In this document: positions 7,254-56,182 of the stretch, in pieces
Layout: every line of letters begins with the position of its first letter
How positions within the stretch are numbered: the first letter of the stretch is position 1
Source of the DNA: Candidatus Nomurabacteria bacterium
GTDB taxonomy: Bacteria > Patescibacteriota > Minisyncoccia > Phycocordibacterales > SBAW01
Direction: 5' to 3'
DNA length: 64,000 bases
Assembly (NCBI GenBank): GCA_943356415.1
Contig: CALREW010000001.1
Coordinates: forward strand, 16,528-80,527
Notes under the pieces: generated by a model
Database searches by the model: none
Told to the model about the DNA's origin: nothing
What the model saw: the letters and a program-made list of their open reading frames with translations, nothing else
Made by a program: the position numbers and the translations under genes

Positions 7254-7281
7254 GTGTGGGAGTGAAAGTTGCTAAGGCAGA

Positions 7282-7854
7282 TTATTTGCCAGACTTTTCA
7301 ATTATTTTGCGTATTAGTTTCTCATCCGCAACTGCTTTGGGTGCCTTGCGACCAAATCTTTTAAGTTGAATAGCAGCTACTTGTTGCTGAGCCTCAAGAG
7401 TTGCCGTGCGTAGCGAGACTCCTTCCAGGACAGCGTTAGTTTGTTCTGGAAAATATAAGGATGAATCAATCTCGGCACCTGGTTCTAAGTGCCGGATAGC
7501 TTGCTCAAAAAGCTTTGAATTTCCCAAGTCTAATTTGGTGCCTGTTGTTTTGTGTACATATTTCTCAACCCCCTCTTCGGTTTTAAGATGTGCGAAATCA
7601 AGATTCGAGATGATCTCTTGAGCACGGACGTGGTCCTCCTCTTCGACAATAATGTCTATATCGTCGTGATCGCGACTCAATTTACCGTACAAAGCATCGA
7701 GACCATAACCACCGAGCACTGAATAGTGCACGGTGGCAGTTTCCAGGGCGTGAGAGAGGTTCTTCAAAAGATCAAAACGTTCGCGTTGTTGAAGTGACGG
7801 TCTGTACTCAGACTCGATCTTCCGGGTCCGGGAAGGTTTTTCTTTGGGCGGCAT
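7282..7854 (-). CDS. nucleotidyltransferase of the ANT(2'')/Lnu-like (PF10706-type) family
   Basis: HYSVLGGYGLDALYGKLSRDHDDIDIIV matches the W..GGWG.D...G...R.H.DIDI motif of lincosamide/aminoglycoside nucleotidyltransferases. Confidence 0.5.
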   Translation of the reverse strand: MPPKEKPSRTRKIESEYRPSLQQRERFDLLKNLSHALETATVHYSVLGGYGLDALYGKLSRDHDDIDIIVEEEDHVRAQEIISNLDFAHLKTEEGVEKYVHKTTGTKLDLGNSKLFEQAIRHLEPGAEIDSSLYFPEQTNAVLEGVSLRTATLEAQQQVAAIQLKRFGRKAPKAVADEKLIRKIIEKSGK

Positions 7855-7902
7855 AAGAAAACTTTAGCACACGACCATATTGAGACTTGATGCTAAGGAA
7901 AT

Positions 7903-8153
7903 TACCTTTTTGTGCTCTAATTCTAACATTTGCTCGAACCTACTTCACACGCGCGGAGCGCGTGGTGGCTTGAAACTGCCCCGTACGCTCCGATTAAGTG
8001 GTGATGCGAACCAATGCGCCTCAACCGCGCTCGCAGACTCGCGCGGGCAAACCCAAAAATTTCCTTGCATTTTCTTTGCACGGCTCCTCCCCCCACCCCT
8101 CCGCCTGCAAGGCGAAAAATGAGGAAAGGAAATTTTTGGTTTGCTTCGCCGCT
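7903..8153. repeat. IR-A (about 250 bp), inverted copy of 9914-10165
   Basis: The reverse complement of 9914-10165 matches 7903-8153 essentially base for base (both strands produce the shared ORF-track peptide MVMRTNAPQPRSQTRAGKPKNFLAFSLHGSSPHPSACKAKNEERKFLVCFAA). Confidence 0.9.
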
Positions 8154-8425
8154 TCGGAACTCCGAAAAGAGTACTTTTAGTTTAGCACTTATGATTGCTC
8201 TTTTCTCCATTCCTCGCGGCGACCCGAGGTGCAATACAATGCGGTCTGCGCTAATGCGCAGTCAGATTTAATATGTGCTTGCCCACCCTCCCACCGCGCA
8301 CATAATCCCCACCGTTTTAGGAAAAATTATAAAACGGTTGGGATTGCTCCATAAAATAAGAGTTTGTTTGGATTGACTTCTGAAAAGTGGTACACTATAA
8401 GCTATAAACATTAAACAATACTTTT

Positions 8426-8905
8426 ATGGGAATGGAAGGATTTAAACCTGCATCGCAGGAAAAAGAGCCGACAATTGGGACACCGGAAAACGTTGAGGGA
8501 CCAAATCAACTGGATAATATTTTGAATGTAATTCGACAAAAAATTGAGCTTGCAAAAGTGCAATTAGAGAAAGCAAATTCGCAAGAATGGATAATAGGAG
8601 AATCAGGTTTCGCAGTTGAACCAAAAGAAGCGGCTCAAGCTAAAGCAAAATTGGACTATTTAGAAAAAGCCCACGAATTATTTTTTAAACCTGTCTTAGA
8701 GTCTCCAAAATCTCAACTTTCGTTAGAAGTAGTGCTTGAGGGTATTGAAAATTATACGAAACATCTTAACGATGAGTATGCTAGACAGTTTGGTAAACTT
8801 GATCCTAACGATGTTGAAGAGACAAAACAAAATAGGGCCAAAAAAATGTGGGGGGAGATAAAACTTAGGGACAAAATTGTGTCTGAGTTTTCGTCCATTA
8901 CTTAA
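8426..8905 (+). CDS. hypothetical protein (AT-rich cargo)
   Basis: 159 aa ORF with coiled-coil-like Lys/Glu-rich composition; no recognisable motif. Confidence 0.45.
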   Translation: MGMEGFKPASQEKEPTIGTPENVEGPNQLDNILNVIRQKIELAKVQLEKANSQEWIIGESGFAVEPKEAAQAKAKLDYLEKAHELFFKPVLESPKSQLSLEVVLEGIENYTKHLNDEYARQFGKLDPNDVEETKQNRAKKMWGEIKLRDKIVSEFSSIT

Positions 8906-8934
8906 TAAAGAACTTAATAAAGACTTTTTGATTC

Positions 8935-9654
8935 CTAGATTCTTAATTTTGTTTTCCAGTTTGTAATCGCAGTGCGTAAGGATTCTTCATAGACAGATTT
9001 AAATGCTGTTTCGAGCGTTGTGTTTTCATCGAGCTTTCTATATGCCTCTATTATTTTATTTTCTCCATAAACTTTTCTTAAGTACTCAATAAAACTGAAA
9101 AGCACCAGATACCCAAGCTGGTCGGCAAACGGCTCTTTGTTTGTATCTCCTCCCATTGTTTTTATATCCCCTATTGTTTGAATAGCGAGAGGGTCGGGAA
9201 TGTCTTGAATATTTTCCTTTTCTAATTTTTCAATAAGTCTGTCTGTTGCGCCATCAAACCCCGCAGTTCCTTCTTCTAGGAAAAAAGAATTTCTATAGGC
9301 AGAGAAATTTCCAACAAGATGAGCAACGACAATATGGGCTGTTTCGTGTTTGATGATTTTTTCTGCATCATTTGGTAGATCCCGAAATACATCGACATTG
9401 CAATATATTTTGTCGTCTGGTTGATCTCGAAGAAGAAAACAATATTTCCATGATTGCGGACCAGAGGTTGCCCCTTCTCTAAAAGCATCATCGCTCATTA
9501 TTGATACCCCGATTCTTATTGGCGAGGAAACACCCCACTCTGCTTCCAAAAGTACACCAACCTTGTTAAAAGATAGCTTTACTTGCTTCTCTTGCTCAAC
9601 TAAAACGCTCCCAGAGATTTCAAATATAAAATTTATATATTGTGGCTTTTTCAT
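8935..9654 (-). CDS. ImmA/IrrE-family (Peptidase M78/DUF955-like) zinc metallopeptidase
   Basis: HExxH motif HETAHIVVAH; lies next to and upstream of an XRE helix-turn-helix gene, as in ImmR/ImmA modules. Confidence 0.55.
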   Translation of the reverse strand: MKKPQYINFIFEISGSVLVEQEKQVKLSFNKVGVLLEAEWGVSSPIRIGVSIMSDDAFREGATSGPQSWKYCFLLRDQPDDKIYCNVDVFRDLPNDAEKIIKHETAHIVVAHLVGNFSAYRNSFFLEEGTAGFDGATDRLIEKLEKENIQDIPDPLAIQTIGDIKTMGGDTNKEPFADQLGYLVLFSFIEYLRKVYGENKIIEAYRKLDENTTLETAFKSVYEESLRTAITNWKTKLRI

Positions 9655-9663
9655 CTTTAAAAT

Positions 9664-9873
9664 TTATTTTAACAACTTATCGCTCGAAACGCCGAGCGCT
9701 TGAGCCAAGCGTTCCAGCTGTTGAATGGTAATATTTTTCTTGCCGTTCTCTATCGCACTCATATAGCCCCTATCCATATCAAGCGCACGGCAAATGTCGC
9801 CTTGCGACATTTCTTTTCGAGTCCGTATTTTCTTGATATTTTGACCAAGTTTTTCACGAATCAACATATCCAC
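9664..9873 (-). CDS. XRE-family helix-turn-helix transcriptional regulator
   Basis: MSQGDICRALDMDRGYMSAIENGKKNITIQQLERLAQALGV is a canonical HTH_XRE (Cro/C1) sequence. Confidence 0.8.
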   Translation of the reverse strand: MDMLIREKLGQNIKKIRTRKEMSQGDICRALDMDRGYMSAIENGKKNITIQQLERLAQALGVSSDKLLK

Positions 9874-9913
9874 AGTTTACGAGATATTGCATTTCTAGCC
9901 AATCTTGAACTAT

Positions 9914-10292
9914 AATTCAACTTAGCGGCGAAGCAAACCAAAAATTTCCTTTCCTCATTTTTCGCCTTGCAGGCGGAGGGGTGGGGGGAGGAGCCGTGCA
10001 AAGAAAATGCAAGGAAATTTTTGGGTTTGCCCGCGCGAGTCTGCGAGCGCGGTTGAGGCGCATTGGTTCGCATCACCACTTAATCGGAGCGTACGGGGCA
10101 GTTTCAAGCCACCACGCGCTCCGCGCGTGTGAAGTAGGTTCGAGCAAATGTTAGAATTAGAGCACTAGAGAGAACAAGTCGCGGATTTAGAATTTGGAGC
10201 GATTTTGCGGAAGCCAAAATCGCGCTATCAATTTCTTTTCCGCCTACGGCGGAAGCCGTGAAATCCCATAATTCCCCCCAGCGTATGGAAAC
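9914..10292. repeat. IR-A' (9914-10165) contiguous with IR-B (10162-10292)
   Basis: The first part is the inverted copy of 7903-8153; the second part is the inverted copy of 11698-11827; the two overlap by 4 nt (gcac). Confidence 0.9.
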
Positions 10293-11844
10293 AACTCAAA
10301 CCAAAACTAAATGCGTTCTCTATGCAAGAAAAAGCACAGAGGAAGATGATAAACAAGTTATGTCCATTGAGGCACAGTTTTTTGAATTGGAAGAATACGC
10401 GCATAGAGAACGCATTGAAATCGTGAAAGTATTTACGGAAGCGAAAAGCGCAAAAAAGCCCGGGCGAGACGAGTTTGCGAAAATGATTGAATATATTGAA
10501 AGAAGCAGTGAGCCAATCGGTATCATTTGTTGGCACCCCGACCGTCTCGCCCGCAATAGCGTTGATGGCGGTAAAATAATTTATCTTGTAGACACTGGCG
10601 CTATTGCTTCTTTGCGCTTTCCGCAGTTTTGGTTTGAGCCAACTCCGCAAGGGAAATTCATGTTGCAAGTGGCGTTCGGACAAAGCAAGTATTTTTCTGA
10701 CAATCTTGTGGAAAATGTGAAGCGTGGAATCCGCCAGAAATTGCGAAAGGGTGAATGGCTGACACTTGCGCCCCTTGGCTATGTGAACAATTACAAAACG
10801 AAAAATATTGAACCCGACAAGGTAGAATCTCGCGTTATCAAGTTAGCATTTCAAGAATACGCCAAGGGAACGCACACGCTTGTTTCTCTTTCGCAATTTC
10901 TGGCGGATCACGGGATTGTGCAGAAAAAAGGAACGCCACTTGCCAAAGTTTCCGTCGTGAAAATGTTGTCCAACAGAGCATATATAGGATTTATTAAACA
11001 TCGCGGAGAATGGCACGACGGAAACTTTGAATCCATTGTTTCTCCGACACTGTTTGAAGCAGTGCAAAAAGTGTTCGCGGAACGGAAGAAACCCCGAAAG
11101 CAAAAATCGTTTCTTCCGTTCGCATTTACCGGATTTGCAAAGTGCGGAGAGTGTGGCTGTGCAATTACGGCACAATATTCCACCAACCGATATGGAGTAA
11201 AATATTGCTACTATCGTTGCACCAAGAAAAATGGAAAGTGCGCACAGCCGTATTTGCAGGAAAAATCACTCTCCGCACAATTGCAAACACTGCTTCAATC
11301 AGTGTCGCTTCCTCTCTCGGAAATTGAAGAAATGGAAAAGCAGATTGATATGTGGGAGAAAGAATCAATTTCCGAGAGAGGAAGTGTTGCCCAAAATCTA
11401 AAAACGAAACTTTCAGACACGAAGGAGAAACTGGACAAACTTATTACGCTCTACCTCGACGGGGATATTGAACGAGAAATATATTTGGCGCGTAAAGATT
11501 TACTCCTTCGTGAAAAAGCGAAAGTTTCGGAAAGTTTAGATGATTTTGGGCAACACAAGAAACAATGGCTCCAACCCTTGCGGAGTTTCATTTTGTCCTT
11601 GAAAGAAGCCACTGTTTTGCAGGAAACGGAAAACCACCTCGCGTGGAAGCAGTTTTTCCAAAAAATCGGGTCTAACCCCACTTTCAAGGACAAAACGGTT
11701 TCCATACGCTGGGGGGAATTATGGGATTTCACGGCTTCCGCCGTAGGCGGAAAAGAAATTGATAGCGCGATTTTGGCTTCCGCAAAATCGCTCCAAATTC
11801 TAAATCCGCGACTTGTTCTCTCTAGTGCCGGGGAGAGGACTTGA
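10285..11844 (+). CDS. large serine recombinase (resolvase/invertase catalytic domain, recombinase domain and zinc ribbon)
   Basis: CVLYARKSTEEDDKQ...ICWHPDRLARN catalytic domain with the Ser in ARKST; C-terminal CGECGC...CYYRCTKKNGKC zinc ribbon; ATG at 10285 (METTQ) sits exactly at the end of IR-B; the ORF track's alternative start is 10258; the C-terminal roughly 45 codons run through IR-B' and 20 nt into tRNA-Leu, so the true stop may be earlier. Confidence 0.8.
   Translation: METTQTKTKCVLYARKSTEEDDKQVMSIEAQFFELEEYAHRERIEIVKVFTEAKSAKKPGRDEFAKMIEYIERSSEPIGIICWHPDRLARNSVDGGKIIYLVDTGAIASLRFPQFWFEPTPQGKFMLQVAFGQSKYFSDNLVENVKRGIRQKLRKGEWLTLAPLGYVNNYKTKNIEPDKVESRVIKLAFQEYAKGTHTLVSLSQFLADHGIVQKKGTPLAKVSVVKMLSNRAYIGFIKHRGEWHDGNFESIVSPTLFEAVQKVFAERKKPRKQKSFLPFAFTGFAKCGECGCAITAQYSTNRYGVKYCYYRCTKKNGKCAQPYLQEKSLSAQLQTLLQSVSLPLSEIEEMEKQIDMWEKESISERGSVAQNLKTKLSDTKEKLDKLITLYLDGDIEREIYLARKDLLLREKAKVSESLDDFGQHKKQWLQPLRSFILSLKEATVLQETENHLAWKQFFQKIGSNPTFKDKTVSIRWGELWDFTASAVGGKEIDSAILASAKSLQILNPRLVLSSAGERT
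11698..11827. repeat. IR-B' (about 130 bp), inverted copy of 10162-10292, ending inside the tRNA-Leu(TAG) 3' end
   Basis: The reverse complement of 10162-10292 matches 11698-11827. Confidence 0.9.
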
Positions 11845-11906
11845 ACCTCCACATCTTGCGATACCTGCTCCTAAGGCAGGCGTGTATACCAATTTCACCA
11901 CCCCGG
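11825..11906 (-). tRNA. tRNA-Leu(TAG), type II
   Basis: Cloverleaf readable: acceptor GCCGGGG/CCCCGGC, anticodon stem CCTGC/GCAGG with loop CTTAGGA, long variable arm, T-loop TTCAAGT; no encoded CCA. Confidence 0.85.
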
Positions 11907-12011
11907 CGTAAGGGAACTATAAACCAGAAAGGGCAGGCTCAAAAGGAGGATTCGGTCCTTACAGGATGAGTACAGGGCGCACAGGTGGTCAGGGGTTTGA
12001 GTTTGGAAGGA

Positions 12012-12120
12012 TTCGGTCAAGCGCTCACTCGTCGCCGTCGCTCCTCGCTCCGCCTGACCACGATTCCGCGACCCGCCCTGCTGAGCGGGTGCCCGCGAAA
12101 TCCTTCGAATCCTTCTGGGC
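12012..12120. repeat. GC-rich structured tRNA-linked repeat E1 (candidate ncRNA or att-like element)
   Basis: Shares the ggYcaagMgctc...cgccgtcgc...gacccNNN-ctRctRa-NNNgggtgcccgcg... framework with E2 and E3; ends in an inverted copy of the tRNA-Lys 3' end. Confidence 0.6.
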
Positions 12121-12168
12121 GTAATACAAAAGTCGTCGGATACATGTATCCGACTCGTTTTGTATTTG

Positions 12169-12241
12169 TGCGCCCAGAAGGATTCGAACCTTCGACCGTT
12201 CGCTTAAGAGGCGACTGCTCTACCAACTGAGCTATGGGCGC
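12169..12241 (-). tRNA. tRNA-Lys(CTT)
   Basis: Acceptor GCGCCCA/TGGGCGC, D-loop TAGCTCAGTTGGTAGAGC, anticodon loop CTCTTAA, T-loop TTCGAAT. Confidence 0.85.
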
Positions 12242-12324
12242 ATGTATCTCACAGAACGCGGATTCGTCTCAGCCGAAGCCGGATGAACAAAAAAGATACT
12301 AACACAATACGCAGGATTCTAAAG

Positions 12325-12451
12325 TGTGCCGAGGGGACTCGGCCAAGAGCTCGTACTATCGCCGTCGCGCCAGTACTCCTCTCGGCCCTGCTCGCACGAC
12401 CCATTCTGCTAAATGGGTGCCCGCGCTCGCTTTCTCGTCCTACCCCGACAG
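12325..12451. repeat. GC-rich structured tRNA-linked repeat E2
   Basis: About 85% identical to 26143-26264 over about 120 nt; two hairpins (GTACT..AGTAC and ACCCATT..AATGGGT). Confidence 0.7.
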
Positions 12452-12496
12452 AAATTGTTAATCGCCCGGAACAGATTCCGGACTCAAACAATTTTG

Positions 12497-12579
12497 TGCC
12501 GGGGGTGGGACTCGAACCCACACGACCTTTCGATCTGGGGATTTTAAGTCCCCTATGTCTACCATTCCATCACCCCGGC
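12497..12579 (-). tRNA. tRNA-Leu(TAA), type II
   Basis: Acceptor GCCGGGG/CCCCGGC, anticodon stem GGGGA/TCCCC with loop CTTAAAA, long variable arm, T-loop TTCGAGT. Confidence 0.85.
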
Positions 12580-12763
12580 GGGTTGGGGGAATCGGTCACA
12601 GATAATCGCTCGTCGTCACTCGCGATTTCCGCGACCCCGGCTCGCGGTTTCGTCTGCTGACGAAACATCGCTGCGCCTTTCGATTCCCCACGTGCCGTGC
12701 GTAGGCACGGCACTCCCAGGACTCATTGAAACGTGCACTGTCGTGCACGAAAAGCCACTGAGG

Positions 12764-12835
12764 AGTCCTGGGGGGGAATCGAACCCCCGCGTGTCGGTTT
12801 TGCAGACCGAAGCGTTACCACTTCGCCACCAGGAC
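12764..12835 (-). tRNA. tRNA-Cys(GCA)
   Basis: Acceptor GTCCTGG/CCAGGAC, anticodon stem TCGGT/ACCGA with loop CTGCAAA, T-loop TTCGATT. Confidence 0.8.
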
Positions 12836-12862
12836 AATATGAGCCGCACGTACTTTAGCATA

Positions 12863-13207
12863 TCAGGCTCCTTTGGCCTGCTTTTCTGCTTCGTGAGAAA
12901 GTTCGTCCATGCGCTGGCGATTCTTTTCACCTTCATCAATGCGGAACTCAGCACGGGGAAGTACGCGGAAGCGTGAACGCTCTTTGAAAAATGCGCGTAA
13001 TTCTGGCGAGCGGCGGTTTGCAAAATCAACCGCTGAGCCCTCCTTCTCGCGGGGCAACACCGTGATGTAGACGATAGCTTTATGTTCTCGTTCAACGATA
13101 TCGACGCGAGTCACGGTTATCAGTGACTGTCCGCCATCTTCGCGAGCGAGGAATTCTGCGGCAAGCTCTCGTACCGCCTCTGCCAATTTTTGTTTGTGGA
13201 AAGCCAT
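12863..13207 (-). CDS. rbfA: ribosome-binding factor A
   Basis: RbfA-like sequence (LITVTRVDIV...AIVYITVL...ELR); sits downstream of infB as in the nusA-infB-rbfA operon. Confidence 0.8.
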   Translation of the reverse strand: MAFHKQKLAEAVRELAAEFLAREDGGQSLITVTRVDIVEREHKAIVYITVLPREKEGSAVDFANRRSPELRAFFKERSRFRVLPRAEFRIDEGEKNRQRMDELSHEAEKQAKGA

Positions 13208-20226: not shown

Positions 20227-20310
20227 GCGTCGGTGGCGGAGTGGTCAATCGCATCTGACTGTAAATCAGACGCCCTAGCGGCTACGCAGGTTCGAATCCT
20301 GCCCGGCGCA
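20227..20310 (+). tRNA. tRNA-Tyr(GTA), type II
   Basis: Acceptor GCGTCGG/CCGGCGC, anticodon stem TCTGA/TCAGA with loop CTGTAAA, long variable arm, T-loop TTCGAAT. Confidence 0.8.
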
Positions 20311-20313
20311 CAA

Positions 20314-21643: not shown

Positions 21644-21649
21644 CAAATA

Positions 21650-21682
21650 CAAAAAAGACCCTGCGACTAGGGTCTTTTTTGT
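21650..21682 (+). terminator. rho-independent terminator after tRNA-Trp
   Basis: aaaaaagaccc-tgcgacta-gggtctttttt. Confidence 0.75.
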
Positions 21683-21800
21683 ATTCGGCGTTGAGCAAAC
21701 CGACTGCTCGGTTTGCGCAGCGGAATCGAAGGCCGGAACCATGTCGCCCTCAGGCGACAGGTGAGGCGGGGTCGCGACCGAGCCGAGCGACGGCGAGGTG

Positions 21801-21930
21801 AGAGTTGTGACCGATTCCCTCATCGCCCACTATGGCTAAGAGGAGAAATGTCGCGGCGGCGCATTTCGAGCTCTTAGCCGATTCCCAAGTTGGCGCGAAC
21901 CCAGAGTTGTGACCGATTCCCGCCATCCAC
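21801..21930 (+). repeat. direct repeats of the tRNA-Trp 3' end (agagttgtgaccgattccc...), at 21801-21828 and 21903-21930, with a third partial copy at 21876
   Basis: tRNA 3' end cgattccctcatcgccc recurs as gaccgattccctcatcgccc and gaccgattcccgccatccac. Confidence 0.75.
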
Positions 21931-26142: not shown

Positions 26143-26264
26143 GGTGCCGGGAGAATCGCTTGGCCAAGAGCTCGTCCTGTCGCCGTCGCACCAGGACTCC
26201 TCTCGGCCCTGCCCGCGCGACCCATTCTACTGAATGGGTGCCCGCGCTTACTTTCAAGTCCTCT
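26143..26264. repeat. GC-rich structured tRNA-linked repeat E3 (between tRNA-Leu(CAA) and pyrF)
   Basis: About 85% identical to 12325-12451; hairpins GTCCTG..CAGGAC and ACCCATT..AATGGGT; ends with an inverted copy of the tRNA-Leu(CAA) 3' end. Confidence 0.7.
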
Positions 26265-26320
26265 CCCCAGCAACAATGCAAAACGCCCAGAGGTATACTC
26301 TGCTCGTTAAGCGTCTTGTG

Positions 26321-37660: not shown

Positions 37661-37825
37661 CATCGCGCGCAAGCGTGGAATGTACGGCCGCCGGGGGAGA
37701 CTCCGGCGGCCGCGCTCGTTCGTTTGCTGCTTGTTGCATCAAGAAGAACATTTAGTACATTCAAAAAGGAAGCACTGAAGTCTGGGAGAGTCCTGGACTT
37801 GTGCATCGATGGGGAAGGAACCCAA

Positions 37826-38557
37826 ATGACGATACGCGTGATTTTGGCACCGCGTCCAGCCCGACAGGCCGTTGCCCGTTGGCTGGTGAAGGCCGGTGTC
37901 CCCGGCGTCAATTTCGAGCACCTCACCACGTTCAAGTCCGGTATCAAGTCGCCGTACTACATGGACTGCAGGCTGCTCCAGGCGTCGCCGGAAGCGAATA
38001 TCGAGGTCATCCGCAGCTACGCGGCGTTGATCGACGAGATGCGCACCGTCGCCAACTTCGACTACGACGCTATCGCCGGCATCCAGACGGGTGCGATCCC
38101 GTTTAGCTCGGTGCTGGCCTATGACGGGCAGTTCACATGCGGCAACGGCCGCGCAAGTCTCCCGTGCCCCCACTACTCCATCAAGAAGGAGGAGAAGGAT
38201 CACGGCAAGAAGGGACCCATCGATGGCGGCAGCCCGGTGGGCAAGAACGTGATCGTCGTCGAGGACATGATGACCACTAACGGCAGCTTGCTGCGTGGCG
38301 TCAACGCCCTGAAGACGGCCGGTGCCACGGTCGCTGGATGCGTTGCCATCATGAGCTACGACATCGACGGCGCGAACGAGAAATTCGTCGCGGAGGGCAT
38401 CCCGCTAGGGCTGCTCACCACACTCGATGACGTGCTGCTCGCGATGTTTGAGCAGAAGCAGATTGCCGACTGGCAGTACCGCGAGGTGATCAACTGGCAT
38501 GGCGACCCGCACAACTGGCACAAGCGGTACCAACCCAAGGTCGCCGTTTCCGCCTAA
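37826..38557 (+). CDS. pyrE: orotate phosphoribosyltransferase (high-GC, with a short insertion)
   Basis: FKSGIKSPYYMD N-terminal motif; PRPP-binding VIVVEDMMTTNGS; aligns along its length with E. coli PyrE blocks (EEKDHGKKG and ALKTAGATVAGC). Confidence 0.7.
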   Translation: MTIRVILAPRPARQAVARWLVKAGVPGVNFEHLTTFKSGIKSPYYMDCRLLQASPEANIEVIRSYAALIDEMRTVANFDYDAIAGIQTGAIPFSSVLAYDGQFTCGNGRASLPCPHYSIKKEEKDHGKKGPIDGGSPVGKNVIVVEDMMTTNGSLLRGVNALKTAGATVAGCVAIMSYDIDGANEKFVAEGIPLGLLTTLDDVLLAMFEQKQIADWQYREVINWHGDPHNWHKRYQPKVAVSA

Positions 38558-40479: not shown

Positions 40480-40606
40480 CTCGAGATGTACGAAGTTCAG
40501 TGAGAGGTGGGGGACAGGGTAGGGAGGGGTCGGGAACCGTGTGATAGTTCCCGTGAAGGAAGGATTGGGAAAACCGTGGGTTTCCCAGCCCCGTGCACCC
40601 CCAACT
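40480..40606 (+). other. structured GC-rich trailer after tRNA-Gln: inverted copy of the tRNA 3' end, two tandem GGGAAMCCGTG hairpins, partial direct repeat of the tRNA 3' end
   Basis: tgggggacaggg (40508-40519) is the reverse complement of the tRNA 3' ccctgtccccca; hairpins gggaacCGTGTGATAgttccc and gggaaAACCGTGGGTttccc; acccccaac at 40596-40604. Confidence 0.6.
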
Positions 40607-40645
40607 AGTTTAAGACAAGCCCGGACTCCAATAGATGATTAAAAT

Positions 40646-56067: not shown

Positions 56068-56182
56068 TTTTTACTATCGTTATAGTTTTTGCGTGCATAC
56101 TCCTGTGAGCTATAGCTCACAGGAGTATGCACGCACTGTTCCATCGCACAGCCATCGAAGTTTCTGCTACCATGGATGACCT

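Follow-up and report, generated by a model that had tools for sequence, protein, structure and literature searches.

Y-shaped elements directly 3′ of tRNA and tmRNA genes in CPR bacteria: a family with the behavior of small protein-less mobile cassettes

INTRODUCTION

Integration classically targets the 3′ ends of tRNA and tmRNA genes and leaves, as its signature, a displaced 3′ end in the form of a direct repeat. CPR bacteria (Patescibacteria) have genomes of ~1 Mb, with famously few repeats and little mobile DNA. What are the GC-rich, structured repeats that occupy tRNA spacers in a 64,000-nt stretch of a Candidatus Nomurabacteria genome (“the window”, meaning this whole stretch)? A preliminary description reported three of them and proposed either a novel ncRNA or an att-like element. 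Here, we describe an undescribed family of Y-shaped non-coding elements, ~105 nt long, that are located directly 3′ of tRNA and tmRNA genes in many CPR genomes; a literature search found no description of it. In its behavior, the family is like a small protein-less mobile cassette, and unlike ordinary spacer.

ELEMENTS OF THE WINDOW

The window contains five complete copies (E1–E5) and several remnants (Table 1), with the complete copies following the genes for tRNA-Lys (E1), tRNA-Leu(taa) (E2), tRNA-Leu(caa) (E3), tRNA-Cys (E4), and tRNA-Trp (E5). The three copies reported first are located where the preliminary description had placed them, 3′ of the tRNA genes it had named and on the minus strand (E1, 12005–12121; E2, 12324–12449; E3, 26143–26272). 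Its account of their composition and similarity also holds: GC content is 0.60–0.68, against a window mean of 0.51; E2 and E3 share 81% identity over 133 nt, rising to 90% in the P2–P3 core; and E1 is more diverged, with a 47-nt block in common at 68–72%. What it overlooked are E4 and E5, both complete, the truncated remnants at two sites, and the antisense and sense copies of the neighboring tRNA 3′ end on the two sides of each core. Over half of the tRNA genes along these 64 kb bear a structured add-on of 150–190 nt, and the motif GCGACGGCGA-N(8-20)-GRCCGANTCC has three occurrences, where 0.00 are expected. A marginal CM match at 37989–38101 lies inside an ORF and was taken as chance.

Read in the sense of the tRNA, a unit consists of the gene 3′ end from T-loop C56 (DR1), a hairpin X that is often terminator-like, an antisense arm, hairpins P2 and P3, and a second copy of the gene 3′ end that also starts at T-loop C56 (DR2). 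P2 and P3 make up the conserved Y core, in which P3 ends in GTGAC. The antisense arm is complementary to DR1 and pairs with the last ~16 nt of the host gene. In E4, the acceptor part of this arm includes GTCCTGG, a sequence equal to tRNA-Cys positions 1–7 and complementary to the 3′ strand of the acceptor. The hairpin that divides the E4 arm, P0, has equivalents of different sequence in L287, L102, L206, L252, and E5.

Table 1. Coordinates of the elements, their parts, and their remnants in the window
Feature	Positions	Strand	Remarks
E1 unit	12005..12167	-	after tRNA-Lys; CM match 12008-12113, 57.8 bits
E1 hairpin X	12123..12167	-	terminator-like
E1 antisense arm	12106..12121	-	CGCCCAGAAGGATTCG; perfect 16-nt complement of tRNA-Lys positions 56-71
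E1 P2 hairpin	12062..12103	-	
E1 P3 hairpin	12015..12059	-	
E1 DR2	12005..12015	-	CGAATCCTTCC; core alone retained
Remnants	11945..11993	-	3′ remnants of two older elements, E1 to tRNA-Leu(tag); more complete in L280
E2 unit	12324..12495	-	after tRNA-Leu(taa); CM match 12334-12441, 53.8 bits
E2 antisense arm	12434..12449	-	
E2 P2 hairpin	12390..12430	-	
E2 P3 hairpin	12341..12387	-	
E2 DR2	12324..12341	-	CGAGTCCCCTCGGCACAC; degenerate copy of tRNA-Leu(taa) 3′ end
E3 unit	26143..26319	-	after tRNA-Leu(caa); CM match 26151-26263, 42.1 bits
E3 antisense arm	26255..26272	-	
E3 P2 hairpin	26211..26247	-	
E3 P3 hairpin	26162..26208	-	
E3 DR2	26143..26159	-	GCGATTCTCCCGGCACC
E4 unit	12580..12761	-	base after tRNA-Cys to direct-repeat end; CM match 12587-12688, 106.4 bits
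E4 antisense arm, acceptor part	12713..12724	-	GAGTCCTGGGAG
E4 hairpin P0	12693..12712	-	divides antisense arm
E4 antisense arm, T-arm part	12681..12690	-	TGGGGAATCG
E4 P2 hairpin	12639..12677	-	loop CAGCAG
E4 P3 hairpin	12594..12636	-	tip GAGTGACGACGAG; C-G to U-A compensatory change vs strain L280
E4 DR2	12580..12594	-	CGATTCCCCC...; decayed beyond 10 nt
E5 unit	21645..21830	+	after tRNA-Trp; CM match 21721-21819, 77.3 bits
E5 hairpins X1 and P0	21646..21716	+	terminator-like X1, 21646-21685; P0, 21695-21716
E5 antisense arm	21720..21728	+	T-arm part only
E5 P2 hairpin	21731..21767	+	
E5 P3 hairpin	21770..21812	+	
E5 DR2	21812..21830	+	CGATTCCCTCATCGCCCAC; exact 17-nt copy of tRNA-Trp 3′ end
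Remnants	21834..21928	+	older elements; E6 P3 and repeat, 21834-21889; P3-end and repeat fragment, 21903-21928; partial nhmmer matches

A FOLD UNDER SELECTION

All five window copies share one common three-way junction, which folds better on the tRNA-sense strand; four copies have folding z-scores of −5.3 to −5.7 on that strand. Both hairpins for which covariation had been suggested are real: one (GTCCTG/CAGGAC versus GTACTG/TAGTAC) forms the inner stem of P3, and the other (ACCCATT/AATGGGT versus ACCCGCTC/GGGCGGGT) is the P2 hairpin. In an alignment of 54 distinct copies, drawn from genomes and metagenomes of CPR bacteria, 94.5% of cells pair, and compensatory double changes are present in 30 of the 33 pairs; this alignment was fitted to the model and hence favors it. 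The covariation score for these copies is 0.605, compared with 0.19 for shuffles and 0.05–0.11 for slid controls; the observed value was reached in 0 of 500 shuffles. An independent RNAalifold prediction on a MAFFT alignment has double changes in 24 of the 33 pairs. The compensatory changes thus exceed both shuffled and slid controls, as expected of a fold under selection, which is what the preliminary description had proposed.

The elements have a five-helix architecture in which the stems covary freely, while the junction and loop nucleotides are invariant; the junction strands are UCGAAAG / GG / GA. A G-U pair at the base of P3 is conserved in 50 of 54 copies, tandem G-A motifs are likewise conserved, and in P2 and P3, G-U pairs are far more numerous than A-C. 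The conserved pair and the excess of G-U over A-C indicate that one particular strand folds. Strand-specific folding and G-U pairs are compatible with putative recombination of the element as a folded single strand.

These same properties (five helices with invariant junctions and loops, covarying stems, conserved G-U and tandem G-A, and a fold specific to the sense strand) also favor the main rival explanation, a host-functional structured RNA, which would act in cis as a module of tRNA precursors or be released from them as a small tRNA-like RNA. We consider this possible but rather unlikely, for reasons that emerge below. As a host RNA, the antisense arm, being a copy of the 5′ acceptor strand and a T-stem strand, would form an acceptor/T-type helix with DR2, sometimes ending in N73-CCA. 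This helix could be a recognition site for RNase P or another enzyme, serving, e.g., trailer cutting or else the buffering or regulation of cognate tRNA maturation, and a common protein would bind to P2 and P3. Spread by duplication would be rare, and gene conversion with the neighboring tRNA would keep the repeats identical.

No RNA family in Rfam fits the elements. Within the window, Rfam 15 at gathering threshold detects eight tRNAs only and nothing over the elements. In agreement with the preliminary description, which had recognized no RNA family, the region 11850–12900 yields no match over the elements even at E-values up to 10. A hammerhead or other known ribozyme was rejected on the basis of the junction strands and the lack of an Rfam match, and the resemblance to a 5S-like RNA is limited to the Y shape.

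COPIES OF THE GENE 3′ END

The direct repeat is exact over 17–25 nt, from C56, in ~17 loci, and the tRNAs upstream of the repeats are intact according to ARAGORN. In three loci (L210, L102, and L177), the repeat runs on into the trailer, which indicates an origin at the level of DNA and not as a copy of a mature tRNA. The antisense arm tracks the current gene. Where DR1 and DR2 differ, the arm complements only DR1 in 71 cases and only DR2 in 29. Indeed, the arm may match the current gene end perfectly over 14–18 nt while DR2 has decayed past its first 7–8 nt, as in L219 (a tmRNA), E1, L166, L264, and the tRNA-Trp copy of L280.

An N73-CC(A) end is found in 9 of 18 intact DR2s, compared with 11 of 74 tRNA genes (15%; p = 0.003), and in six loci (L046, L018, L195, L180, L183, and L076), DR2 has a CCA that is absent from the gene. 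In L018, the acceptor-strand copy begins 2 nt past the tRNA discriminator base. The N73-CC(A) enrichment and the position of the L018 copy count in favor of a host RNA. However, the DR2 acceptor part decays while the core remains intact (CM scores of 97–110 bits in L219, L264, L074, and L076), so a tRNA-like acceptor end cannot be the conserved function. We also rejected a tRNA-like RNA with a conserved free N73-CCA: only half of the intact DR2s have this end, and the DR2 acceptor half is gone in many copies with an intact core. Moreover, the antisense arm matches a real tRNA end and, as RNA, would compete with tRNA folding.

Evidence on transcription likewise falls on both sides of the host-RNA explanation. 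Some elements lie between co-oriented tRNAs with no predicted promoter in between, and these must therefore be transcribed. In hairpin X of such in-operon copies, a T-run is less frequent (2 of 7, versus 18 of 29 elsewhere), although this is only a trend in small numbers. Against a host RNA, a strong terminator-like hairpin precedes most copies.

The complementarity of the arm to the tRNA 3′ end (16–18 nt, including the CCA in the orphan L252) and the six loci with a CCA in DR2 only would also suit an RNA-guided or retro-type element. In that case, the arm would be a primer-binding site or an exon-binding guide, DR2 would be a copied tRNA 3′ fragment, and insertion would pass through an RNA intermediate by means of a reverse transcriptase (RT) or a ribozyme activity of the core. 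We consider this very improbable. The repeats enter untranscribed or unprocessed trailer in L210, L102, and L177, for which reason we also rejected reverse transcription of mature tRNA as a general source of DR2; the repeat lacks CCA in half of the intact copies; no RT family recurs nearby; no known ribozyme or intron model matches; and introns of group I or II are much larger than the core. A T-loop intron was rejected because, of the two 3′-end copies, it is without exception the upstream one that is intact. A group I or II intron was rejected because the upstream tRNA is complete alone, DR2 is often decayed, and there is no Rfam intron match.

DISTRIBUTION

The preliminary description had tied its reading to further copies and to covariation. 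The covariation is strong, and many copies were found in CPR genomes and metagenomes, 34 of the 52 family matches being positioned 9–78 nt 3′ of a tRNA or tmRNA gene on the same strand. The first pattern used on the genome collection was too loose: of the 120 matches listed, most were GC-rich noise, and nhmmer recovered seven true loci. The host genes span ~18 amino-acid specificities plus two tmRNA genes, and the family extends to Paceibacteria-like, Kaiserbacteria, and Saccharibacteria genomes. Occupancy is patchy: 42 of the 74 tRNAs on element-bearing contigs have no element and, contrary to expectation for a host-functional RNA, manage without one.

Tandem arrays or downstream remnants are present in L070, L237, L166, and L273, and in the window at E5/E6 and E1; such arrays, and truncated remnants, are what insertion typically leaves, and they argue against a host RNA. 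Near-identical cores occur at different genes (0.91 between the tmRNA copy L076 and the tRNA-Ser copy L074; 0.90 between E2 and E3). Core divergence is about the same within one genome as between genomes (0.59 versus 0.63); a recent burst has therefore not taken place. Clustering of cores by genome or by tRNA type gave no clear signal (0.59, 0.67, 0.63).

Could the elements be scars of larger integrated elements, with the Y core and repeat being the att-proximal 150–190 nt left after deletion or imprecise excision of an island or prophage? The nature of the target and the displaced 3′ end are what such scars would show, and a few copies are located away from any tRNA (L205, L252, and L243). 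Moreover, a strain-specific island of 4.57 kb, encoding a large serine recombinase, is inserted in the window at the tRNA-Leu(tag) 3′ end. However, the element core is at neither end of this island, and no full-length island with the core at its end was seen. In ~35 loci, the whole insertion is only 150–200 nt, with the complete architecture each time; no integrase family recurs near the elements, and no copy was found in viral or plasmid collections. Lastly, a covarying structure would not persist in a scar. We therefore regard this explanation as improbable.

STRAIN AND SPECIES COMPARISONS

The window and L280 (one of the set L280–L284, from samples SRR24750912-23) represent strains of ~97% identity, with flanks that are 93–98% identical, and their element content differs. 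E5 is missing from L280; E6, truncated in the window, is complete in L280 (antisense arm, P2, and P3); and in the E1 region, L280 has an element of a different subfamily in its place. Among more distant relatives, L287 has elements after the Cys and Tyr genes and none after Leu(taa) or Lys, while L063 is the reverse of L287 for Cys and Leu(taa). Thus, orthologous sites show presence/absence or replacement of elements, as expected of mobile elements, and this variation among close relatives and strains weighs against a host RNA. The differences between the window and L280 are replacements and deletions, not clean insertions; no precise empty/occupied allele pair and no circular junction were found. 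No polymorphism among strains was seen at the E3 or tRNA-Gln sites in contigs that reached them. Contigs of relatives with 80% identity end directly after rbfA and do not extend into the tRNA cluster.

E4 counts in favor of a host RNA. It has an ortholog in L287, across a deep split (IF-2 is 68% identical), with the whole architecture retained: every stem has changed in a compensatory fashion, and junction and loop sequences are invariant. Between the window and L280, the only two differences in E4 make up a single compensatory pair. From these alignments, the conservation of E4 looks like selection in place, which is not expected for a purely selfish immobile copy.

SEARCHES FOR ENZYMES AND VECTORS

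The 150 ORFs located up to 4 kb from elements were scanned with Pfam; the 25 most frequent families listed include no recurrent recombinase, transposase, RT, or integrase, consistent with a non-autonomous element, although a family occurring once or twice could fall outside this list. Scans and blastn searches of viral contigs, phage genomes, and plasmids yielded no true copy; the match L295 (19.7 bits), from the viral/plasmid-collection search, lies in a coding region and was discarded.

Several known classes of mobile DNA were compared with the elements on this basis. As for an island or prophage att site, a tRNA 3′-end direct repeat flanks the insert and the gene is restored; integrase and cargo are lacking, with inserts of 150–200 nt and no integrase nearby. 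An integron cassette array was rejected because no integrase family is recurrent nearby and the elements are dispersed behind tRNA genes. A Xer-exploiting element of the CTXphi type was rejected because the arms copy the adjacent tRNA or tmRNA 3′ end and not dif. A MITE was rejected because the arms vary with the host tRNA, the repeats are 17–25+ nt long, and there is no transposase nearby.

A PROPOSED CASSETTE MODEL

Our analysis establishes a genuine family in which structure is kept while sequence changes. For the two alternatives first proposed, a novel ncRNA and an att-like element, the evidence is divided. A mobile, att-like nature is favored by tRNA 3′-end direct repeats, tandem remnants, strain-level replacement, and patchy occupancy. 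The functional-RNA reading is kept alive by in situ conservation of orthologous copies and by the position of elements within tRNA operons.

The best explanation, which we hold tentatively and would put a little short of an even chance, is that the elements are non-autonomous integrative cassettes for tRNA and tmRNA 3′ ends that are recognized as a folded single strand by a putative trans-acting enzyme. The mobile form would comprise DR, X, antisense arm, P2, and P3, ~170–190 nt in all. In its single-stranded form, the sense and antisense arms would anneal into a duplex from which P2 and P3 branch off, and this duplex would mimic the T-arm/acceptor part of the target gene. Recombination of the folded strand with the gene, at position 55/56 or immediately past it, would then be carried out by an enzyme encoded elsewhere. 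The incoming cassette would bring a working 3′ end, because of which the tRNA would stay intact, and the old 3′ end would be pushed downstream as DR2. Repeated events would produce tandem arrays, and exchange between the two sites would replace one cassette with another, leaving decaying DR2s and truncated older copies. Since a cassette inside a tRNA operon is transcribed, its fold probably must also stay harmless to tRNA maturation.

The cassette model draws together the strand-specific fold, the target association, the direct repeats, the match of the arm to DR1, strain turnover, patchy occupancy, arrays, and cores shared across genes. Several observations stand against it: (i) no precise empty allele, circle, or enzyme was found, and viral, phage, and plasmid sets contain no copy; (ii) E4 appears to be under selection in place, and there is no sign of a burst; (iii) the cassette must carry a 3′ end that fits each of ~20 tRNAs, and its re-templating on a jump is unexplained; (iv) N73-CC(A) enrichment in DR2 is not predicted by simple displacement of the old end; and (v) the orphans L205 and L252, which follow non-tRNA sequence, do not fit a T-loop target.

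A bolder form of the model, which we regard as doubtful, is that the elements are a new class of gene-less cassette that recombines as a folded strand, with a stem that imitates the T-arm/acceptor duplex of its own target, and that replaces the gene 3′ end with each landing. With such a stem, the cassette could colonize essentially every CPR tRNA gene, as well as tmRNA, using only a host or distant trans-acting enzyme. The logic would be analogous to that of attC or CTXphi, here directed at the translation machinery of the most reduced bacteria.

Mobility of the elements would mean movement of DNA with no element-encoded protein, rewriting the 3′ ends of essential RNA genes, and would account for strain variation and local rearrangements in CPR bacteria and for the breaking of their assemblies at tRNA clusters. 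Should the elements instead be functional RNAs, tRNA biogenesis across a major part of the bacterial tree would involve a widespread and hitherto unknown player. The covariance model makes this choice directly testable in cultivated Saccharibacteria.

COMPARISON WITH KNOWN SYSTEMS

The preliminary description had drawn an analogy to integron attC sites, which stands as logic and fails as membership. Like attC sites and their cassettes, the elements conserve structure over sequence, have one strand that folds (the attC substrate being a folded single strand), and are small protein-less units that occur in arrays and are exchanged. Unlike integrons, they have no integrase, no attI, and, in the alignments inspected, no R″(RYYYAAC)-L″...L′-R′(GTTRRRY) boxes, the arms being GGGAnTCG/CGAnTCCC plus acceptor sequence; their loops and junctions are conserved in sequence; and they are located behind tRNA or tmRNA genes, bearing a copy and an anti-copy of the target.

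The forked hairpin of CTXphi attP(+) is similar in that inverted, target-like arms ~90 nt apart can anneal and mimic the chromosomal target, a host enzyme rather than an element-encoded one recombines it, as is proposed here, and tandem arrays form. Here, however, the target is the tRNA T-arm/acceptor and not dif, the whole element is gene-less and <200 nt, a conserved two-hairpin core lies between the arms, and no ssDNA phage is linked to it. With tRNA-integrating islands, prophages, and CIMEs, the elements share a target from T loop to 3′ end, a restored gene, an old end left as a direct repeat, and tandem accretion; with CIMEs, they also share the lack of an integrase of their own. They differ in measuring 150–200 nt rather than kilobases, in the antisense arm and the covarying folded core, and in the use of ~20 tRNA species plus tmRNA by one family.

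MITEs and REP/BIME sequences are likewise short, non-coding, multi-copy, hairpin-forming, and intergenic, and some REPs are both mobile and functional in RNA. Unlike them, the elements lack both a short target-site duplication and fixed terminal inverted repeats, having instead repeats copied from the host gene; they are strict as to target and orientation, and copies within a genome are highly diverged. Similarity to tRNA-like RNAs (the tRNA-like domain of tmRNA, viral tRNA-like structures, YrlA) is confined to intact arms, which reproduce the neighbor's acceptor stem, discriminator, and often CCA; there is no T-loop/D-loop mimic, the DR2 acceptor half decays while the core is kept, and no Rfam tRNA-clan model matches. 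Lastly, tRNA group I introns of Patescibacteria are structured non-coding insertions tied to tRNA genes in the same phylum, and interrupt the gene at position 35/36, in the anticodon loop (PMC13011429). The element, by contrast, is ~105 nt long, matches no intron model, and lies behind an intact gene.

Copies in the window and beyond

ARAGORN predicts eight tRNA genes in the window. As the preliminary description had proposed, three related elements lie directly 3' of tRNA-Lys(ctt) (E1), tRNA-Leu(taa) (E2), and tRNA-Leu(caa) (E3), all on the minus strand. Their proposed kinship also holds: a repeat finder aligns E2 and E3 over 133 nt with 81% identity, and the more diverged E1 has a 47-nt block in common with them, at 68-72% identity. 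A profile built from the known copies finds two extra complete members behind tRNA genes, E4 and E5 (see the table), and a partial copy, E6, just downstream of E5. A covariance model run without filters on both strands of the whole window returns full-length matches at exactly the five copies E4, E5, E1, E2, and E3 (106, 77, 58, 54, and 42 bits, respectively), and no other convincing match. A diagnostic motif occurs three times, versus 0.00 expected in shuffled sequences. The elements fit no known RNA family: Rfam returns only tRNAs over the window, and a search of the tRNA/element cluster at E-values ≤10 adds nothing.

A marginal covariance-model match at 37989-38101 (+; 21.9 bits, rough E-value 0.0007) lies inside an ORF, 37724-38557, in GC-rich coding sequence, and we take it to be due to chance. 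A perfect 46-nt palindrome at 56090-56135 (23-nt arms, no spacer) gives weak scores of 12-13 bits. Behind tRNA-Gln, positions 40481-40610 (+) contain antisense (12-13 nt, TGGGGGACAGGG) and sense (9 nt, CCCCCAACT) copies of the gene's 3' end, with GC-rich hairpins between the copies; the covariance model does not recognize this region, so it is a degenerate relative or else belongs to another family.

Features located in this analysis (window coordinates unless a locus is named)
Feature	Position	Strand	Remarks
E4	12580-12700	minus	after tRNA-Cys; profile match
E5	21706-21828	plus	after tRNA-Trp; profile match
Nucleotidyltransferase-like ORF	7282-7854		island
Unknown ORF	8426-8905		island
Peptidase_MA-like ORF	8935-9654		island
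Large serine recombinase	10258-11844		island; Resolvase, Recombinase, Zn_ribbon_recom domains
Inverted repeat pair, 242 nt	7912-8153 / 9924-10165		island; 100% identical
Inverted repeat pair, 131 nt	10162-10292 / 11698-11828		island; 100% identical
~225-nt sequence, window	9924-10165	plus
~225-nt sequence, window	7912-8153	minus
~225-nt sequence, locus L205	7038-7295	minus
~225-nt sequence, locus L252	11703-11833	minus

The family is widespread. Homologues of its IF-2 put the organism with Parcubacteria/Paceibacterota-like CPR bacteria. Pattern scans of genome and metagenome collections, followed by a profile filter, yielded 52 members in 40 loci, some of them in MAGs labelled Candidatus Kaiserbacteria and Candidatus Saccharibacteria. 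The tie to tRNA genes seen in the window recurs elsewhere: 34 of the 52 have a tRNA or tmRNA gene 9-78 nt upstream of them on the same strand, another five are 154-261 nt away from theirs, with a further copy or a remnant in between, and several of the rest are at contig edges. None of the copies found has the opposite orientation relative to its host tRNA. Hosts include tRNAs for Ser, Gly, Cys, Asp, Thr, Gln, Tyr, Leu, Pro, Lys, Phe, Val, Ala, Arg, Trp, Asn, and Met, as well as two tmRNA genes. In the element-bearing CPR contigs, only 11 of 74 tRNA genes encode CCA; most tRNA genes of these loci continue as N73-CAAA, i.e., one C short of CCA. The viral contigs, phage genomes, and plasmids searched yielded no true copy, and we found no description of the family in the searchable literature. 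Group I introns in the tRNA genes of Patescibacteria are located at position 35/36 (PMC13011429) and are unrelated.

Fold and covariation

The elements are strongly structured and fold on one specific strand. On the tRNA-sense strand, E1-E5 have one common three-way junction, comprising (i) P1, the closing helix, with 5' arm GGGAnTCG and 3' arm CGAnTCCC; (ii) P2, a hairpin interrupted by an internal GGA/GA loop and capped by an ARYA-type tetraloop that usually reads CAGCAG; and (iii) P3, a long hairpin with a basal G-U pair, a small bulge, and the tip GA-GC-GACG-GC-GA. In four window copies, this strand has folding z-scores of -5.3 to -5.7, as against about -0.1 to -2.3 for the opposite strand, E3 excepted.

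Stem sequences are wholly different from copy to copy, and the covariation noticed earlier in two stems extends to most pairs of the fold. RNAalifold, applied to a plain MAFFT alignment of 30 copies, predicts 33 pairs, with double-sided changes in 24. For 54 distinct copies aligned to the covariance model, pairing is retained in 94.5% of cells (71.6% after shuffling), 30 of the 33 pairs show double changes, and the covariation score is 0.605, compared with 0.19 for shuffles (0 of 500 reach 0.605) and 0.05-0.11 for slid controls; this alignment is biased in favor of the model to which it was fitted, and the independent MAFFT alignment is concordant. The basal G-U of P3 is present in 50 of the 54 copies. 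In P2 and P3, G-U pairs are common and A-C combinations rare, indicating that the folded strand is the tRNA-sense one, whether it is RNA or single-stranded DNA.

Sense and antisense copies of the host gene end

The elements are strictly placed and oriented relative to the tRNA and tmRNA genes that they follow, and each unit is built around sense and antisense copies of the host 3' end. In tRNA sense, the order is the tRNA to position 55; DR1, the gene's own 3' end from C56; X, a hairpin that is often a good terminator with a T-run; the antisense arm; P2; P3; and DR2, the downstream second copy. P3 ends in GTGAC, whereupon DR2 begins, like DR1, at C56, and its first 7-8 nt close P1. DR2 is an exact 17-25-nt copy of the gene end in about 17 loci; that of E5, CGATTCCCTCATCGCCC, reproduces 17 nt of the tRNA-Trp 3' end. 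At L210, L102, and L177, identity between DR1 and DR2 extends into the trailer; the repeat is therefore a duplication made at the DNA level and does not derive from a processed tRNA.

The complementarity of the antisense arm covers the T-loop/T-stem part and in most copies includes the acceptor 3' strand, so that the arm reproduces the 5' acceptor strand of the tRNA. An extra hairpin, P0, splits many of the arms at the acceptor/T-stem boundary. In E1, the arm (CGCCCAGAAGGATTCG) complements positions 56-71 of tRNA-Lys perfectly, over 16 nt. Considering only positions where DR1 and DR2 differ, the arm complements DR1 alone at 71, DR2 alone at 29, both at 35, and neither at 33, with the DR2-only matches mostly from badly decayed, mis-registered copies. 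Arms matching the present gene end perfectly over 11-18 nt occur in E1, at the tRNA-Trp gene of a sister strain (L280), at a tmRNA gene (L219), and at L166, L264, L249, and L255. In all of these, DR2 has decayed past its first 7-8 nt, and the cores are fully intact (97-110 bits). Hence, conservation extends to the core, to DR2 over its first 7-8 nt, and to the complementarity between arm and gene end; a tRNA-like acceptor stem formed with DR2 is not conserved.

These patterns bear on the main rival to a mobile origin, namely that the elements are host-functional RNAs, cis-acting or tRNA-like, which we consider possible but less likely. In its favor, an N73-CC(A) ending is present in 9 of 18 intact DR2s, versus four of their DR1s and 11 of 74 tRNA genes (Fisher p = 0.003); however, the acceptor half of DR2 is dispensable. 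Conservation in place also favors a host RNA. E4 has a counterpart at the orthologous site in L287, a genome whose IF-2 is just 68% identical. Both units are laid out as hairpin, acceptor-strand copy, P0, T-arm copy, P2, and P3; all stems have changed yet are compensated, and junction and loop sequences are identical. E4 (P3 at 12594-12636) and its sister-strain equivalent (L280 12038-12139) differ by two substitutions only over 216 nt, and these are the two sides of one P3-tip base pair (GC-GACG-GC versus GT-GACG-AC). No promoter is predicted between the co-oriented tRNAs that flank elements, so the elements there are probably transcribed. X has a T-run in 2 of 7 in-operon copies versus 18 of 29 elsewhere, a trend based on small numbers. 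Cores differ as much within one genome (identity 0.59) as between genomes (0.63), with only a slight excess for the same tRNA type (0.67), although some near-identical cores (0.90-0.91) are at different genes.

Turnover between strains

Against a host RNA stand the remnants and the turnover between strains. In the sister-strain contigs, IF-2 is 99% identical and the flanks 93-98% identical to the window, yet the two differ at four tRNA genes (Trp, Lys, Tyr, and Leu(tag)). At tRNA-Trp, the sister strain has a single complete element, whose antisense arm (GGCGATGAGGGAATCG) is perfect to tRNA-Trp and whose P3 corresponds to that of the truncated E6; the window has instead a new hairpin, the unrelated E5, and E5's repeat, joined directly to the E6 P3. 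At tRNA-Lys, the 190 nt with E1 are non-homologous to the sister strain's 230 nt, which hold a different, standard-type element and a further remnant; only the 3' ends of these two are kept in the window. The tRNA-Tyr gene (20227-20311; L280 4420-4505) shows 100% identity between the strains but has the reverse orientation, and its flanks and terminators differ. A degenerate antisense-arm-like remnant lies behind the sister strain's tRNA-Tyr.

Occupancy is patchy among more distant relatives: in L287, elements follow Cys and Tyr but neither Leu(taa) nor Lys, and L063 has one after Leu(taa) but none after Cys. Tandem arrays consist of two identical units (L237) or two different ones (L070), and older partial copies lie downstream of complete ones. 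Short-read contigs of close relatives (L285, L286, and L291) stop no more than ~60 nt past rbfA, or else directly at tRNA-Gln, exactly where tRNA/element clusters begin, suggesting that the repeats break assemblies.

The fourth difference is a strain-specific 4.57-kb island (7254-11824) that directly follows the 3' end of tRNA-Leu(tag). Sister-strain contigs L280-L283 lack this island, and in them tRNA-Leu(tag) is followed by 4 nt and the start of a NUDIX gene (window 7253). Of its two adjacent inverted-repeat pairs, one brackets two ORFs, and the second encloses the recombinase gene and adjoins the tRNA; the arrangement may represent a double invertible segment or have arisen as an assembly artefact. 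The 242-nt repeats are homologous to a conserved ~225-nt structured, multi-hairpin sequence that lies ~100 nt ahead of orphan copies at L205 and L252. This sequence has no Rfam match and is not a tRNA, and is a candidate for an unknown structured RNA or an element end. In those two metagenomic CPR contigs, its context is housekeeping (GroEL, phosphatase, LD-carboxypeptidase). It is unlikely that the elements are themselves scars of larger islands.

Possible mechanisms

At 39 loci, 150 ORFs lie no more than 4 kb from elements; Pfam families frequent in this set are housekeeping ones, and the 25 commonest families listed include no recurrent recombinase, transposase, or reverse transcriptase. 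We regard an RNA-guided or retro mechanism as very improbable. The elements combine DNA-level repeats, arrays, remnants, and between-strain turnover with no such enzyme recurring nearby. The best-supported reading, to which we give somewhat less than an even chance, is that they are non-autonomous integrative cassettes. The arms would anneal in single-stranded form and so imitate the target duplex, and a trans-acting enzyme would recombine the cassette with the gene at or after position 55/56. The cassette would supply the new 3' end, and the old 3' end would become DR2. Exchange between both sites could account for young antisense arms beside old DR2s. Although the elements fail as members of either group, the logic of such cassettes would be similar to that of integron attC cassettes and of the CTXphi attP hairpin.
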